A DNA stretch of 64,000 bases from positions 542,928 to 606,927 of the forward strand of contig JBAZUE010000001.1 in NCBI GenBank assembly GCA_041661605.1. The letters are read 5' to 3'. This document shows, in pieces, positions 5,831 to 56,899 of this stretch (its first letter is position 1; the number at the start of each line of letters is the position of its first letter). A program made the position numbers and the translations under genes. Origin of the DNA: Candidatus Omnitrophota bacterium. Its GTDB lineage: Bacteria > Omnitrophota > Gorgyraeia > Gygaellales > Profunditerraquicolaceae. The notes beneath the pieces were generated by a model. It ran no database searches. It saw nothing but the letters and a program-made list of their open reading frames with translations, and had not been told where the DNA came from.

Positions 5831-7055
5831 TGCGGATCAAATCCGCGTAAGTTTCTCTTTTTCTGATTACACGCACTTTATCCTTAGATACCATGACTTC
5901 GGCGGCCCTGAGGCGGGAATTATAGTTGCTGGACATACTAAACCCGTATGCTCCGGCACTCATCACCGCCAGATAATCGCCTTCTTTAACATCAGCGATC
6001 AGGCGTTCCTTTGCCAAGAAGTCCCCGCTTTCACAAATCGGGCCGACCACATCGGCTTTTTCAGCCTTAGCAATCTTGCGCAAAGGCAGGATATTGTGAT
6101 ATGCCCCGTAAAGGGCCGGACGGATCAAATCATTCATCCCGGAGTCAACGATAATAAACTTCTTTTTCGGGGTATTTTTGATATATAAAACTTTCGTTAA
6201 CAATATCCCGGCATTACCGGCAATAAAGCGGCCCGGCTCCATAATTATCTTTAAGCCAGTGCTCTTTAAAAGAGGAATTATTTCATCGGCATAAACCTGG
6301 GCGGTCTGAGGGGCCTCCTGATCATAAATAATCCCCATCCCCCCTCCGATATTCAGGTATTCAAGCTTAATACCTTTTGCGCCTAACTTTTTAATAAAAC
6401 AACCCACCTTCTTGAGAGCCGCCACAAAAGGAGCGCTTTCGGTGATCTGCGAACCAATGTGGATATGCAAGCCACAGATTTTCACGTTCTTGAATTTATT
6501 ACGCAGGAGCAGAATTTTATAAGCGTTATTTAAATCAATGCCGAACTTATTGGTAATTTTTCCGGTAGTGATAAATTTATGCGTCTTGGCTTCCACATCG
6601 GGATTTATGCGGATAGCTACCCGGGTAATTTTACCGAGCCTACCGGCAATACGGTCGATGCTCCTTAATTCTGGAAGCGATTCTACGTTAAAGAAAAGTA
6701 TTCCTTTAGTGATTGCCGTGGCAATCTCCGCTTCGGTTTTACCCACAGAGGCATAAACAATTTTATTGGCAGGGCAGCCAACTTTTAAGGCGCGAAAAAG
6801 TTCGCCACCGGAGACAATGTCTAATCCGGCGCCTTTGGCAATTAAAGCTTTTAGTATGGACAGATTGGAATTGGCTTTTACCGAATAGCAGATAAGAGGG
6901 TTGATTTGAGAAAACGCGGCTTTTAATTTTAAATAGTGATCAATCAACGTATGATAGCTATAGACATAAAGCGGCGTTCCAAATGTTTTAGCTAATTTTC
7001 CAACTAAAACATTTTCGCAATAAAGCCGGGTATTCTTATATTTAAATTCGTGCAT
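5814..7055 (-). CDS. lysA: diaminopimelate decarboxylase
   Basis: YSVKANSN (PLP Lys), GGGMGI and CESGD motifs; 413 aa. The ATG is fused to the end of 51-bp element copy 1. Confidence 0.9.
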   Translation of the reverse strand: MHEFKYKNTRLYCENVLVGKLAKTFGTPLYVYSYHTLIDHYLKLKAAFSQINPLICYSVKANSNLSILKALIAKGAGLDIVSGGELFRALKVGCPANKIVYASVGKTEAEIATAITKGILFFNVESLPELRSIDRIAGRLGKITRVAIRINPDVEAKTHKFITTGKITNKFGIDLNNAYKILLLRNKFKNVKICGLHIHIGSQITESAPFVAALKKVGCFIKKLGAKGIKLEYLNIGGGMGIIYDQEAPQTAQVYADEIIPLLKSTGLKIIMEPGRFIAGNAGILLTKVLYIKNTPKKKFIIVDSGMNDLIRPALYGAYHNILPLRKIAKAEKADVVGPICESGDFLAKERLIADVKEGDYLAVMSAGAYGFSMSSNYNSRLRAAEVMVSKDKVRVIRKRETYADLIRNEFNK

Positions 7056-7103
7056 TTGTTTTCTAACCTAATCTACTGCATACAGTTATATACACTGTCT
7101 ACA
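7053..7103 (-). repeat. 51-bp unit-boundary element, copy 1 (class 1, diverged)
   Basis: Plus-strand read CATTTGTTTTCTAACCTAATCTACTGCATACAGTTATATACACTGTCTACA. It contains the argH stop (TAG 7099-7101) and the lysA start (ATG 7053-7055). Confidence 0.8.
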
Positions 7104-31520: not shown

Positions 31521-31526
31521 GGATTT

Positions 31527-31557
31527 ATTATACTATAAAACCTAATAAACCGTCTTA
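31527..31557 (-). promoter_or_regulatory. recG promoter, probably giving a leaderless mRNA
   Basis: Perfect TATAAT (31527-31532) ends 6 nt before the recG ATG, and there is no SD. The upstream TAAGACGGTTTAT resembles the stop-proximal end of the class-2 51-bp element. Confidence 0.5.
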
Positions 31558-31612
31558 AAAAATATTTTTAGGGGGACTTGAAAATGGGGTAGGCATGTGG
31601 CATACTTATATT

Positions 31613-31714
31613 GAACCAAGAGTGTAACAAGCAACAAGGAGGCTAGGAACGATAGCGGGAGCTATTAGGCCTATCACCTACAAAGAAACCCCGGGAAAAT
31701 ACGGGGCTTTTTTG
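31613..31714 (+). ncRNA. candidate ~100-nt small RNA (function unknown)
   Basis: Plus-strand TTGAAA-N17-CATACT promoter (31578-31606) and the terminator at 31689-31713 bracket about 100 nt. That stretch has an ATAGC-GGGA-GCTAT stem and an AAGGAGG run but no AUG/GUG/UUG at RBS distance. Confidence 0.3.
31689..31713. terminator. bidirectional intrinsic terminator
   Basis: CCCCG-GGAAAATA-CGGGG with CTTTTTT on the plus strand and TTTCTTT on the minus strand. Confidence 0.7.
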
Positions 31715-31725
31715 TTAATAAGCGG

Positions 31726-31841
31726 ATAATTTACGGAGTGAGCTTGGCGAACGACGTAAATTATAGCGAAGCGTCCGCGAATTAATACCCGTAGCTGCAA
31801 GCAGATTTTAAAAAATCTGCGCCGCGCTTAGCTACGGGTAT
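31726..31841. repeat. pair of palindromic hairpins related to the 15-kb composite palindrome
   Basis: Hairpin 1 is ATAATTTACG-N19-CGTAAATTAT, with a loop holding GAGTGAG and CGAACGA. Hairpin 2 is ATACCCGTAGCT...AGCTACGGGTAT enclosing GCAGATTTT-AA-AAAATCTGC. It shares TTACG/CGTAA stems and the GAGTGAG, CGAACG and GATTTT/AAAATC words with 14998-15169. Confidence 0.7.
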
Positions 31842-31891
31842 CTTGCTATATAAATCTTCGAGTGATTAGGCGTAGGATATTATATAGGGTG

Positions 31892-31942
31892 TATTTGTTA
31901 TGTAACCATATTATTCACACTGAGTTACATAGACTGTCTACA
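31892..31942 (-). repeat. 51-bp unit-boundary element, copy 2 (class 1)
   Basis: TATTTGTTATGTAACCATATTATTCACACTGAGTTACATAGACTGTCTACA. It supplies the TAG stop (31938-31940) of the DUF3568-like gene. Confidence 0.9.
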
Positions 31943-32327
31943 AATATTCTTTGATCCTGTTCAAAATCTTGGTGCAGGCTGCCTTGTCTCCACTGACCCC
32001 GCCTACACGAACCTCTACTTTTGTAGAAGTATCGGTAACTCTTCTAATATCAATCCAGATTTCCTTGCCATCGGTATAGTGGCTTCTAAACGTGGCGACA
32101 TTGGCTTCTTTAGCTTCTTTAGTTATTTCAAATTTAAAAGACCTTAAAGCCGACTCGGTAGCTTGTATCGTACGATCATAAGAAGCTTCAAATTGCTGGG
32201 TCAATTTTCCGGAAAGCCAGACACCTGTTCCTACGCCGCCTACAGCCCCCGCAAATAAAGCAAAACAACCGTACATATTTAAGAGCAAAAATCCGGAAAA
32301 AACAAAAATCGCCGCTTTCCTAAACAT
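31938..32327 (-). CDS. small lipoprotein (DUF3568-like)
   Basis: Signal peptide with a LNMYGC lipobox-like Cys; about 130 aa. The family assignment is from memory only. Confidence 0.45.
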   Translation of the reverse strand: MFRKAAIFVFSGFLLLNMYGCFALFAGAVGGVGTGVWLSGKLTQQFEASYDRTIQATESALRSFKFEITKEAKEANVATFRSHYTDGKEIWIDIRRVTDTSTKVEVRVGGVSGDKAACTKILNRIKEYL

Positions 32328-42849: not shown

Positions 42850-44147
42850 TTATAGATGCGGTCATCAAATATTATATCACTGTGGAGCACCGGGCGCTTA
42901 AGTTTTATTCCACTCAGACAAGTGCATCTGCTAAGCGCTACATATAACTGGCCGTGGGTAAAGGCGCCATGCCCCAAGTCGATGATCACTTTATCAAAAG
43001 TCTGGCCCTGGCTCTTATGAATAGTTATGGCCCAAGCCAGTTTTAAAGGATATTGCGCAAATTCGCCAACAACTTCATCTTCTATCTTATCTTCAGCCTC
43101 ATTGTAACTATATTCAATTTTTTGCCATTTCATGACGGGGATATCGCATGCCAGGCCGTTGATATTGACGACTATCGAATCTTTCGATAAAGCGGTGACT
43201 TTGGCAAGCGTGCCATTCACCCATCTTTTGTCGGGATCATTCTTTATCAATATTACCTGCGCGCCTTTTTTGAGTTTTAAGTATGCGTCGGTAGGATATG
43301 TTGGCTCTTCGAATCTTCCGGTTGCCATGGCCTTATACACTATCTCTTTGCCGGGAAGTTTTGATAAGCGATCCTGGTTAATCGCGTTTGCCAGGCTGTT
43401 GGTCGTTGTCAGGATCACGGTTGAGTCCTTCTTAGAAAACTCTAACCCTTTTTGGACTCTATTATTCAATATGCCCAGGTCATCTTCGGTATGCTCTTTA
43501 TTCCTGACCCGGTTTAAAAGCTCCATGAACGAGCTGTCTTTCTGTCTATATATAGTCGAGAGCTCAATTGTCCTGATATGACAGGCGTCAAACACTTTAG
43601 CGCTGAAAAAATAAGGAGTCGCATATCGTTCTCCCAAAAGCTGTCTTGCTTCATGCTCAACCACAGGAGAAAGCTGGAAAAGATCCCCAAAAAATACCAT
43701 TTGGACTCCGCCAAACGGCGCCTTCATTCTGCCGCGGTTGAGGCGCAATGCATAGTCGATGCCGTCCATAAGGTCTGAGCGGACCATGGATACTTCGTCT
43801 ATTATTACCATATCTATATTTTCAAGCAAGCTCTTGTCTCTAAGGCGTTTTATTGCATCCTTTTGGATAATCTTTGGAGGAAGCCTGAAGAAGGAGTGAA
43901 TTGTCTGGCCGCCAACATTAATGGCCGCCACGCCCGTCGGGGCTAAGACGATTATATTTTTGCCGGTGTTGGCTTTAAAATATTTTAAAAGGGTGGATTT
44001 TCCGGTGCCGGCTTTACCGGTGATAAAAAGGCATTCTTTGGTATACTCCATAAGATCAAAGGCCGACTTGAATTCATCGTTTATATCAAGCTGGTCAGGG
44101 AGTTGGTCTCTGGATATTGTTTGGCTGGTGGAGAATTTCATAATCAA
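42822..44147 (-). CDS. Pif1/RecD-like SF1 DNA helicase
   Basis: Walker A GKAGTGKST, Walker B IIDEVSM, and the C-terminal AITIHKSQGQTFDKVIID motif. The last 8 codons are read from element copy 4. Confidence 0.8.
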   Translation of the reverse strand: MIMKFSTSQTISRDQLPDQLDINDEFKSAFDLMEYTKECLFITGKAGTGKSTLLKYFKANTGKNIIVLAPTGVAAINVGGQTIHSFFRLPPKIIQKDAIKRLRDKSLLENIDMVIIDEVSMVRSDLMDGIDYALRLNRGRMKAPFGGVQMVFFGDLFQLSPVVEHEARQLLGERYATPYFFSAKVFDACHIRTIELSTIYRQKDSSFMELLNRVRNKEHTEDDLGILNNRVQKGLEFSKKDSTVILTTTNSLANAINQDRLSKLPGKEIVYKAMATGRFEEPTYPTDAYLKLKKGAQVILIKNDPDKRWVNGTLAKVTALSKDSIVVNINGLACDIPVMKWQKIEYSYNEAEDKIEDEVVGEFAQYPLKLAWAITIHKSQGQTFDKVIIDLGHGAFTHGQLYVALSRCTCLSGIKLKRPVLHSDIIFDDRIYKVDSLRNLL

Positions 44148-44380
44148 TAATTAAAAAGATCCTTCAGCTGGTACTGCTTAGACGCGGCTTTATTCAACGC
44201 GTTAAGAACCCTACGCTGAATCTTCGGCGTCAGGCGCCTGCCCTTAACCGCCCGGTTAATCATCTTATAAGTTAATTGCTCGGTGGAATTATTGACCAAG
44301 TCCGTAGGCTTAAAATTGTGTTCAGCCATAAGCTTGGCGATCGGCTGCGGACCTAGATCATATATAGTATTTTTATTCAC
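44144..44380 (-). CDS. hypothetical small basic protein (possible DNA-binding), translationally coupled to the helicase
   Basis: 78 aa; GTG start; ATGA overlap with the helicase. The basic region AVKGRRLTPKIQRRVLNALNK suggests nucleic-acid binding. Confidence 0.4.
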   Translation of the reverse strand: MNKNTIYDLGPQPIAKLMAEHNFKPTDLVNNSTEQLTYKMINRAVKGRRLTPKIQRRVLNALNKAASKQYQLKDLFNY

Positions 44381-44420
44381 TGCAAAATACCTGTGGTAAA
44401 TTTAAGATACTCTTAACATG

Positions 44421-44482
44421 TATTTGTTTTGGAACAATATTATTTGCAATGAGTTACATAGACTGTCTACAGGGTCTACAGG
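44421..44482 (-). repeat. 51-bp unit-boundary element, copy 5 (class 1) with 9-bp terminal tandem duplication
   Basis: TATTTGTTTTGGAACAATATTATTTGCAATGAGTTACATAGACTGTCTACA followed by a second GTCTACAGG. The symporter stop TAG (44476-44478) lies in the duplicated unit. Confidence 0.9.
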
Positions 44483-47774: not shown

Positions 47775-47778
47775 AATG

Positions 47779-47829
47779 TATTTGTTTTGTAACAATATTA
47801 TTCACAACAAGTTATATACACTGTCTACA
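47779..47829 (-). repeat. 51-bp unit-boundary element, copy 6 (class 1)
   Basis: TATTTGTTTTGTAACAATATTATTCACAACAAGTTATATACACTGTCTACA. It supplies the ABC-F stop TAG (47825-47827). The amidase ATG lies 4 nt beyond the other end. Confidence 0.9.
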
Positions 47830-51049: not shown

Positions 51050-52048
51050 CTAAAGAATTGTTTTGTAACTTATTAATACACAGATAGTTATATAAAGCGT
51101 CTTACTAATCATTGATTCCATTTCCAAACGAGTTTTTGCGCGGGAGGACTGCTCCCTTAGCGGCCGGATGTTGCGGATACCCTTGGTGTACCAGCCAAAA
51201 AATTTGCGGAATAAAATTACCCCGTTTCTTTCTCCGTAAAAATCGACTGAGGCGCCTAGATGTTCCAGCATTACCTTAACTACCTTTGGCCTTTCGGGCT
51301 TTGGGAGGATTTTGCCGGTTTTTAAGAATTCTTTTATTTCTTTGAATATCCACGGGTTTCCAAATGAACCGCGGGCAATAACTAAGCCATCACAATTTGT
51401 TTCGCCAAGCATTTTTTTGGCTAATTGCTCCGAGAAAACGTCGCCACTGGCAATAACCGGTATGCTTAATGCCTTCTTTACTTCAGCAAGTACTTTATAA
51501 TCCACGCTACCGCCGTACTCCTGGGTTTTAGTCCTTCCGTGGATAAATAATCCGCTGACTCCGGCATCCTGGGCGCAAAGCGCTACTTCCCTGGCATTAA
51601 TAGTATCTTTATCCCAGCCTAAACGCATTTTTACGGTTACCGGGATTTTAGAGTTTTTTACTATCAACTTAAGTAATTTATGAAGCTTCCTGGGTTCTTT
51701 TAACAGGGCAGCTCCCTCACCGCGGCGGACGACTTTCTTCGCAGGACAGGCAGCATTAAAATCAAGGATATCAAATTTATAAGCTTTCAGGACGTCCAAG
51801 GCTTTTAGAATAAATTTCTCTTCACAGCCTAATATCTGAACACCCAGAGGCTTATCTTTCGGCAAGGTAGAAAGCATGTGCCGGGTCTTCCTGCTTTTGT
51901 GAGAGATTGAGCGACAGTTGATCATCTCGACAAACGCCAGCTCCGCGCCAAACTTCCGACAGAGCATGCGAAATGGCAAATCTGTTACTCCGGCCATTGG
52001 AGCCAGGATTAAATTTGATTTTAGTTTTAAGCTGCCGATTTTAAACAT
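51050..52048 (-). CDS. dusB: tRNA-dihydrouridine synthase
   Basis: LAPMAGVTDLPFR, DFNAACP and FIHGRT motifs. Start set to MFKIGS (52048). The C-terminal 17 codons are read from element copy 7. Confidence 0.85.
   Translation of the reverse strand: MFKIGSLKLKSNLILAPMAGVTDLPFRMLCRKFGAELAFVEMINCRSISHKSRKTRHMLSTLPKDKPLGVQILGCEEKFILKALDVLKAYKFDILDFNAACPAKKVVRRGEGAALLKEPRKLHKLLKLIVKNSKIPVTVKMRLGWDKDTINAREVALCAQDAGVSGLFIHGRTKTQEYGGSVDYKVLAEVKKALSIPVIASGDVFSEQLAKKMLGETNCDGLVIARGSFGNPWIFKEIKEFLKTGKILPKPERPKVVKVMLEHLGASVDFYGERNGVILFRKFFGWYTKGIRNIRPLREQSSRAKTRLEMESMISKTLYITICVLISYKTIL
51055..51105 (-). repeat. 51-bp unit-boundary element, copy 7 (class 2)
   Basis: GAATTGTTTTGTAACTTATTAATACACAGATAGTTATATAAAGCGTCTTAC. 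The dusB ORF reads completely through it. Confidence 0.8.
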
Positions 52049-52084: not shown

Positions 52085-52093
52085 CAGATTCCG

Positions 52094-52144
52094 TAATTGT
52101 TTTGTAACTTATAGAAATATAAAGAGATACATAAAACGTCTTAT
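52094..52144 (-). repeat. 51-bp unit-boundary element, copy 8 (class 2)
   Basis: TAATTGTTTTGTAACTTATAGAAATATAAAGAGATACATAAAACGTCTTAT. It begins right after the pgi TAA-TAA-TAA triple stop. Confidence 0.75.
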
Positions 52145-56753: not shown

Positions 56754-56848
56754 CCTACAAACATCTAATCCTTTATTTACTACTTAGGTAAGTGTAACAC
56801 ATTTTGTCTATTTGTCCAGTAAAATTATGTTTATTTTATCACGGTAAA

Positions 56849-56899
56849 GAATTGTTTCGTATTTACTTGGCAAACAAAGAGTTATGTAAAGCGTCTTAC
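56849..56899 (-). repeat. 51-bp unit-boundary element, copy 9 (class 2, most diverged)
   Basis: GAATTGTTTCGTATTTACTTGGCAAACAAAGAGTTATGTAAAGCGTCTTAC. It supplies the Smr gene stop TAA (56896-56898). Confidence 0.7.

Follow-up and report, generated by a model that had tools for sequence, protein, structure and literature searches.

A dispersed extragenic repeat of Candidatus Omnitrophota, very probably the unit of a REP/RAYT-type family rather than a promoter

Most known REP/RAYT systems come from Proteobacteria, and the way in which they spread has yet to be settled. REPs are palindromes of 20–50 nt, preceded by the tetranucleotide GTAG and arranged in inverted pairs, and the single-copy tnpA-REP gene is itself flanked by REPs (PMC8266576). 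Under the REPtron rule, each repeat family is served by one transposase (PMC6006769, PMC8266576). The positions of the transposase that contact GTAG include W94, Q95 and R104, the role of W94 being reported as unclear (Quentin et al. 2018, PMC6006769). Di Nocera et al. (2013, PMC3733652) described the related TIRtrons, in which long inverted repeats other than REPs enclose RAYT-like genes (TIRYTs) and also occur as dispersed families of moderate abundance.

Here, a 51-bp element found on the minus strand at positions 31892–31942 of a 64,000-nt stretch of a Candidatus Omnitrophota contig (JBAZUE010000001.1; this whole stretch is hereafter the window) is compared with these systems. The analysis indicates that this element is very probably one unit of a dispersed extragenic family of the REP/RAYT type (REPtron/TIRtron-like), cognate to a Y1/HUH transposase, and not a promoter. 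The family is regarded as REP/RAYT-like because the repeat is partnered with what appears to be a single-copy tyrosine (HUH) transposase. A system of this type is undescribed in Omnitrophota, and no paper in the library searched connects this phylum to REP or RAYT.

The coordinates and sequence originally given for the element proved exact when the window was re-read: the minus strand from 31942 to 31892 reads TGTAGACAGTCTATGTAACTCAGTGTGAATAATATGGTTACATAACAAATA, with the layout TG-TAGACAGTCTA-TGTAAC-TCAGTGTG-AATAAT-ATG-GTTACA-TAACAAATA. This is copy 2 of a class-1 repeat unit that spans 31891–31942 (nhmmer 49.5 bits, E = 2.7e-14) and is composed of a head, a 17-nt middle and a tail. The conserved head TGTAGACAGTCTATGTAACT (31923–31942) is made of columns that are invariant or at least 90% conserved among 60 copies; it carries GTAG at 31938–31941, and the TAG at 31938–31940 terminates the upstream DUF3568 gene (ORF 31938–32327). 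The palindrome TAGACAGTCTA (31930–31940) overlaps this head and is perfect in copy 2 without being a feature of the family. Similarly, only TAAC of the 5′ arm ATGTAAC (31924–31930) and (G)TTAC of the 3′ arm GTTACAT (31900–31906) are conserved family-wide. The middle TCAGTGTGAATAATATG (31907–31923) contains the AATAAT core at 31910–31915, and across a gapless alignment of about 90 copies it keeps its length while its sequence varies by subfamily. In the A-rich tail AACAAATA (31892–31899), A46, A47, A49 and A50 are invariant, and A51 and T52 are at least 90% conserved. All these parts lie on the minus strand. Within the window, TAGACnGTCTA had four perfect and two one-mismatch matches against 0.78 expected, and ATGTAAC-N17-GTTACAT had seven matches with up to two mismatches against 0.12 expected, levels reached by none of 100 shuffles in either case; at zero mismatches the arm pattern was found in copy 2 only. 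A non-coding stretch of 370 nt (31521–31890), for which no Rfam match was obtained, separates copy 2 from recG and contains a long hairpin at about 31787–31839 (minus sense) and a terminator-like site on the plus strand (31689–31706).

Profile searches of the window retrieved exactly six class-1 copies (37–51 bits) and, with a profile built from independent metagenome copies, three class-2 copies (41–47 bits), a copy number far above chance. Besides copy 2, the class-1 units are copy 1 (7052–7103), between argH and lysA, whose head TAG is the argH stop and whose tail ATG is the lysA start; copy 3 (36643–36694), into whose head the ORF of an M42 peptidase extends by 28 nt; copy 4 (42798–42848), between genes for a Pif1-like helicase and a holin-like protein; copy 5 (44420–44471), after an alanine symporter gene; and copy 6 (47778–47829), between an ABC-F gene, whose stop is the head TAG, and a LysM amidase gene. 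The class-2 units are copy 7 (51052–51105; 47.3 bits with the class-2 profile), within the 3′ end of the Dus ORF; copy 8 (52093–52144), after the PGI stop codon; and copy 9 (56846–56898), directly behind the TA that begins the Smr stop codon. The flanking genes are unrelated housekeeping genes (argH/lysA, DUF3568/recG, M42 peptidase, Pif1-like helicase, alanine symporter, ABC-F, amidase, Dus, PGI and Smr). Two of the earlier observations on these neighbourhoods held on inspection, namely that genes start close to the tail (lysA, the amidase, a 237-aa ORF and the holin-like gene, at –5 to +14 nt) and that hairpins follow copies 3 and 8.

All nine copies lie on the minus strand, as do the genes, and the window has a uniformly negative GC skew. 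Y1 transposons often show a replication-strand bias. Across loci, no strand bias relative to GC skew was detected, the sense strand being G-rich in 66 cases and C-rich in 59, so that a bias of this kind does not account for the co-orientation of the nine window copies. One other locus (L056) shows the opposite arrangement, with one unit on the plus strand and eight on the minus strand while the genes are on the plus strand.

Some copies bear local peculiarities. Just ahead of copy 5, a 9-nt stretch of its start is repeated in tandem (CCTGTAGAC CCTGTAGAC; 44474–44482, minus strand), a trace that transposase activity or slippage could have left, and the symporter stop codon is the TAG of this extra partial head. 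Between the co-oriented copies 5 and 4 lie the gene for the Pif1-like helicase and some 270 non-coding nt (42798–44471, minus strand); a related locus (L041, 6180–6290) lacks this whole block, and there the Shine-Dalgarno sequence and start of the holin-like gene follow directly on the symporter stop. In the case of copy 7, the Dus ORF reads through the entire unit to a TAG at 51050 (51050–51107, minus strand), which adds about 19 C-terminal residues relative to the unit-less Dus of L028 and represents an annotation hazard.

The family was collected by a single scan of species-representative genomes with the 19-mer of the head, which returned 54 loci, nearly all of them in Candidatus Omnitrophota metagenome-assembled genomes (MAGs) from at least 20 assemblies or species representatives. 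The tail, which is outside the 19-mer query, was still present at a fixed distance in the Omnitrophota loci. Matches in Cytophagales/Marinoscillum (L003, L013) and SR1 (L037) were without the tail and were discarded as chance, and a phage origin was set aside after a scan of viral contigs gave a single head-only match, also without a tail. Two loci from a bin labelled 'uncultured Planctomycetales' (L041 and L044; CAYRUB01) carry the element and are 82–84% identical to the window over kilobases; this bin is probably a mislabelled Omnitrophota genome. The profile derived from the collected copies retrieved about 95 copies from the fetched loci and the window, and the fetched loci hold about 125 copies in total, all of which are intergenic or overlap gene ends only.

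The unit has a constant length of 52 nt, and about 90 copies from at least 20 MAGs align without any gap. What is conserved family-wide is the head (T/A)GTAGACAGTnTAyrTAAy and the tail TTACAnAAsAAATA at fixed spacing, and nothing else; the 17 nt between them vary in recognisable subfamilies, and the one bearing AATAAT dominates the window. In class 1, positions G4, T5, A6 and G7 (GTAG, in agreement with the GT[AG]G tetranucleotide of REPs) are 90–100% conserved in 60 copies. Among 30 independent copies, which had not been fished with the head 19-mer, GTAG was found in 19 and ATAG in seven. Class 2 is devoid of GTAG and has AAGAC in its place.

These comparisons showed that the architecture first proposed for the element was over-read from one subfamily. 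The original prediction described a perfect palindrome, 7-bp inverted arms, a conserved AATAAT core and a conserved A-rich tail. The palindrome is perfect in copy 2, but across the family its G7–C13 pair is broken in 19 of 60 copies, and it is perfect in only six of the 30 independent ones. Likewise, the arms exist in copy 2, but their outer pairs are broken in 25–44 of the 60 copies and full 7/7 arms occur in none of the independent set. The G–C pair of the palindrome and the outer arm pairs therefore mutate freely among copies, an outcome that the original prediction had itself named as counting against it. AATAAT was recovered in one of the 30 independent copies and is a trait of particular copies or subfamilies. 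The A-rich tail is conserved family-wide, in the form TTACAnAAsAAATA. Among 60 non-redundant copies, neither pairing nor covariation exceeded that of shuffled controls for the palindrome and the arms (245 and 329 of 500 shuffles reached the observed values), and a mutual-information scan of the copies revealed no complementary column pairs that stood out. Folded as single-stranded DNA, single units (n = 60) behaved like shuffled sequence, with mean z-scores of –0.28 (sense) and –0.32 (antisense), and hence lack the palindromic stem-loop by which REP units are defined. Rfam scans gave no match at the gathering threshold and only noise at E-values of up to 10.

The arrangement of the units relative to genes and to each other was also informative. 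The head side always faces a gene, which presents its 3′ end in 48 cases and, on the opposite strand, its start in 37; this mixed orientation fits an element acting at the DNA level. Solo units in gaps between co-directional genes were sense in 19 cases and antisense in 16. Moreover, 33 of 94 copies, about a third, face another copy tail to tail in inverted orientation. The 17 doublets so formed have a spacer whose commonest length is 17 nt (mostly 16–19 nt) and track the background mix of gene-pair types, and no head-to-head pair was seen among the family copies. Class-2 pairs occur likewise at fixed spacing in metagenome loci. The two middles of a doublet are not complementary while the heads and tails are, and it is because of this complementarity that doublets fold strongly, forming long hairpins (z = –6.6 and –5.4). 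In the 48 co-oriented cases, the head TAG is an in-frame stop in 20, as against four and three in the other two frames, a bias that could result from insertion beside the TA of stop codons or from selection against C-terminal extensions. In the JALOBQ01 genome, both inserted solo units (L043, 1123–1174 and 2004–2055) share about 25 nt past the tail (TGGGTAyrAATTTTAAr), which resemble the start of the doublet spacers of the same genome (GGGTAGCTTGAACCCAA; doublets of L015 and L053); this suggests, from the shared sequence, that solos arose from doublets or that the spacer belongs to the mobile unit.

Evidence of mobility came from sites that are occupied in one genome and cleanly empty in a relative. 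Compared with L007 and L010, the window has 59 extra nt at copy 9, inserted cleanly behind the TA of the Smr stop and restoring a TAA; copy 7 has an empty orthologous site in L028; and the units of L043 lie between rmlA and rmlD and between rmlD and rmlB, genes that overlap in four other genomes. A TA target-site duplication at copy 9 would require a 1-nt homopolymer change at the junction and was not adopted. Older occupied sites exist as well. The argH/lysA site of copy 1 is occupied in four genomes, its orthologues in L046, L051 and L026 being filled, and orthologues of copy 6 are present in L002 and L028. At the site after PGI, the window has class 2, L007, L010 and L035 have class 1, and the copy of L028 is decayed. 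At sites conserved between species, the head and tail remain intact and the middle drifts, a pattern that would also fit a host function under purifying selection.

The candidate transposase was found in a relative (L048), where an ORF at 1336–2022 encodes a 228-aa protein with a Pfam Y1_Tnp domain (2.8e-15) and lies between two inverted units with their heads outward. Its best NCBIfam match was the REP-associated tyrosine transposase (REP_Tyr_transpos; 2e-16, 60 bits, under the equivalog cut-off of 80), against 4e-4 and 20 bits for the IS200 family. The only PDB sequence match of this protein, which was also the top Foldseek match of its AlphaFold model, was 4ER8, the E. coli TnpArep bound to a REP hairpin; the next fold matches of the model were the TnpA proteins of IS608 and ISDra2. 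The motifs HYH, LWQGRF and CGRYxERNP (Y-x-E-R-N-P) were invariant in 28 homologues. Homologues number in the thousands, and the closest 120 are of about 228 aa and are labelled as Omnitrophota transposases where a source is named, each protein cluster among them being found on one to three contigs. The order tyrS, RAYT, then PQ-loop and/or rml (rmlA) is kept in six genomes (L048, L040, L055, L056, L057 and L060) at 64–85% protein identity, with small inserted ORFs before the downstream PQ-loop/rml genes in some of them. This kept synteny, together with the restriction of each cluster to one to three contigs, points to a single-copy, non-mobile and vertically inherited gene.

The units bracket this gene in a recurrent manner. 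In five of these genomes (L048, L040, L055, L056 and L060), the upstream unit has the same orientation as the gene and the downstream inverted unit overlaps its 3′ end, while L057 has the upstream unit only. In the same five, the last four to six codons of the transposase (…AIFVL*; 2005–2022 in L048) are encoded by the tail of the downstream unit. Class-1 units occur on both sides of the gene in L070/L117, variant units flank it at a different locus in L058 (62% identity), and class-2 units lie on both sides in L059 (54% identity). In L055–L060, and in both RAYT lineages, the interval from the upstream unit to the RAYT gene holds a conserved non-coding motif (…GTTAGAT…CGTC(A/T)ATT…) followed by AGGAGG, about 30–110 nt before the gene start; this motif may be the gene's own promoter or operator.

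Class specificity was tested by means of a metagenome scan fished with the class-2 element pattern alone, which gave at least 120 loci (787 kb), many of whose units were doublets at fixed spacing. These 787 kb contained 18 RAYT genes, far above the expectation for a single-copy gene. Sixteen of them, of the P0102 type, lie beside class-2 units, on both sides in 13 and on one side in three, with an upstream co-oriented unit at 28–180 nt and/or a downstream inverted unit overlapping the 3′ end; the remaining two, of the P0001 type, are flanked by class-1 units. The second transposase lineage, diverged and paralogous and 51–76% identical to its reference protein, is thus class-2-flanked in 16 metagenome loci. 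The pairing of P0001 with class 1 and of P0102 with class 2, as judged from these associations, corresponds to the one-transposase, one-repeat-family rule of REPtrons. No transposase gene was found in the 64-kb window, and its presence elsewhere in the same genome is inferred from the relatives.

Promoter activity was one of two functions that the original prediction suggested, preferring neither, with TAGACA as the –35 and AATAAT as the –10 hexamer of an activator-dependent promoter with an over-long spacer; a variant would be a hybrid promoter that takes GTTACA as its –35. The gene starts close to the tail speak for it, as does one locus-specific σ70-like match on the minus strand (31879–31906; 10/12 in a consensus scan, 16-nt spacer), a pattern match only, which joins GTTACA of the element to a TATAAT placed outside it. 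Nevertheless, the near absence of AATAAT from independent copies and a TAGACA–AATAAT spacer of 19 nt (19–21 nt) against the 16–18 nt of σ70 promoters make this function highly improbable, and there are also copies between convergent genes and inside the rml operon. Because of the mixed orientation and the 33 copies facing tail to tail, about half of the sites would fire antisense if the element were a one-directional promoter. By-eye inspection in both orientations for σ70, extended –10, ECF-type (TGTAAC…CGT), σ54 and Bacteroidetes-type (–33/–7) promoters found none that fits the conserved boxes at a permissible spacing. An RNA role, in which the 7-bp arms would act as a 3′-UTR stabiliser, a terminator or a processing hairpin, is quite improbable as well. 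Heads often begin at a stop codon, some copies precede terminators, many copies are probably transcribed and doublets would give long RNA hairpins; against this, Rfam matches, covariation and complementary mutual information were all lacking, the folding of solo units on either strand matched that of shuffled sequence, the units occur in both orientations relative to transcription, and no U-tract follows the arms. The orientation-blind pattern argues against both a one-directional promoter and an RNA motif. The other role raised in the original prediction, a 3′-UTR or protein-binding boundary, fared better: the element is extragenic, often starts at a stop codon and contains the putative recognition sequence of a RAYT, so that the boundary idea appears closer than the promoter and right in spirit.

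Mobile or recombination sites of other kinds are extremely improbable. A doublet does resemble a MITE of about 121 bp with 52-bp inverted ends, as would be mobilized by a DDE transposase with TA duplication; yet the copy-9 insertion shows no unambiguous target duplication, and the Y1/HUH enzyme is the only transposase found bracketed by units. The GTAAC…GTTAC arms are superficially like the R″/R′ boxes of attC, but they span only 31 nt, against the 55–140 nt of attC, and the most conserved parts of the unit lie outside them. A cassette boundary of the Xer/dif-like kind could be suspected from the bracketed Pif1 gene and its absence in L041, but the flanking genes are syntenic housekeeping genes. 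Integron attC, Xer/dif, DNA-uptake sequences and nucleoid-protein sites were set aside on architecture and on the link to the transposase. Co-option by the host is compatible with the REP/RAYT-type explanation and, although rather unlikely, deserves more weight. Units would here serve as gene punctuation by providing stop codons, start codons and start contexts that lack a Shine-Dalgarno (SD) sequence, or would bind a nucleoid or boundary protein. In its favour, heads supply in-frame stops in 20 of 48 co-oriented cases, further ORFs besides lysA (in L010 and L043) start at the tail ATG, and orthologous sites are kept across species with a drifting middle. However, intact heads and tails are also to be expected if persistence is limited to units recognisable by the transposase, decayed copies exist (L028), orientation is unconstrained, and no candidate host protein was identified.

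The REP/RAYT-type explanation can be put in mechanistic terms by analogy with E. coli TnpA-REP and with IS200/IS605. The transposase would recognise the GTAG/AGAC region of the head in single-stranded form, probably when a doublet is folded into its hairpin or while the DNA is being replicated, and would then cut and rejoin it; by homology, units would be slowly dispersed and maintained in intergenic DNA. Insertion beside the TA of a stop codon would regenerate TAG (class 1) or TAA (class 2), which would explain why heads often supply the stop of the upstream gene. Effects on the host, such as the supply of stop or start codons, an A-rich SD-less start context or an occasional hybrid promoter, would be secondary. 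The family appears to be selfish or semi-domesticated, with a single-copy transposase of the domesticated type. Against the REP/RAYT-type explanation count the non-palindromic units, the score of 60 bits below the cut-off of 80 and the lack of GTAG in class 2. A more far-reaching version, offered tentatively and as less probable than its alternatives taken together, is that of an ancient cross-species REPIN-like population, in which the unit has lost its self-complementarity and only the doublet remains structured, two co-resident transposase lineages each keep their own class, and units work as gene punctuation through insertion at the TA of stops, donation of ATG, SD-less A-rich leaders and the harmless splitting of coupled operon genes. 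If this were true, the relation would be mutualistic and not merely selfish, in very compact genomes.

An undescribed REP/RAYT system in an uncultured candidate phylum would be relevant for several reasons. It is unusual in its long non-palindromic unit with two putative recognition boxes at fixed spacing, in the one-to-one matching of two transposase lineages with two repeat classes, in a sequence conserved in many species, and in fresh insertions seen at stop codons and inside operons. Together, these traits would amount to a natural cross-specificity experiment on DNA choice by HUH transposases. For annotation in practice, the units are a source of spurious C-terminal extensions, false TTG starts and apparent promoters in Omnitrophota MAGs.

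Among the described systems, the ERIC/IRU and Correia (NEMIS) elements resemble the Omnitrophota units in that they lie between genes in either orientation, are transcribed together with their neighbours, keep their sequence from species to species and occasionally contribute promoter or start signals; unlike these units, ERIC and Correia are palindromes of about 100–150 bp without a dedicated Y1 transposase, and Correia makes TA duplications. IS200/IS605 and their PATE/MITE derivatives have in common with the present system the Y1 HUH fold and insertion beside a short motif without a clear target duplication. In contrast to them, the Omnitrophota transposase is found in single copy in a fixed synteny without tnpB, its repeats vastly outnumber the gene, and the unit ends are without small subterminal hairpins.

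The closest resemblance is to the REPtrons formed by REP/BIME-REPIN and RAYT (TnpA-REP) in E. coli, Pseudomonas and Stenotrophomonas (PMC8266576, PMC3479197, PMC3116915), with which the family shares a high-copy extragenic distribution and, in class 1, the GTAG start. Singlets and inverted doublets with set spacers, doublet hairpins, and an HUH/Y1 gene that appears single-copy and vertically inherited, flanked by inverted units and with its own repeat class per lineage, are further common traits, and the W-Q residues of RAYTs are conserved in the Omnitrophota transposases. The differences are that the 52-nt unit is not a palindrome and is conserved in two boxes at fixed spacing instead of a stem, that class 2 is without GTAG, that the transposase is longer (228 aa, with a C-terminal extension of about 80 aa) and scores below the NCBI equivalog cut-off, and that many species of a candidate phylum share one conserved sequence. 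As in TIRtrons, inverted repeats of tens of nucleotides bracket the gene, the downstream one overlapping its 3′ end, and are dispersed as single, dimeric and grouped copies; unlike them, class 1 carries GTAG, to which TIRs were reported to be unrelated (PMC3733652), and the sequence, the host phylum and the fixed bipartite architecture differ. Since the REPtron traits that could be tested appear to be present except for the palindromic unit, the Omnitrophota system sits between the REPtron and TIRtron descriptions.
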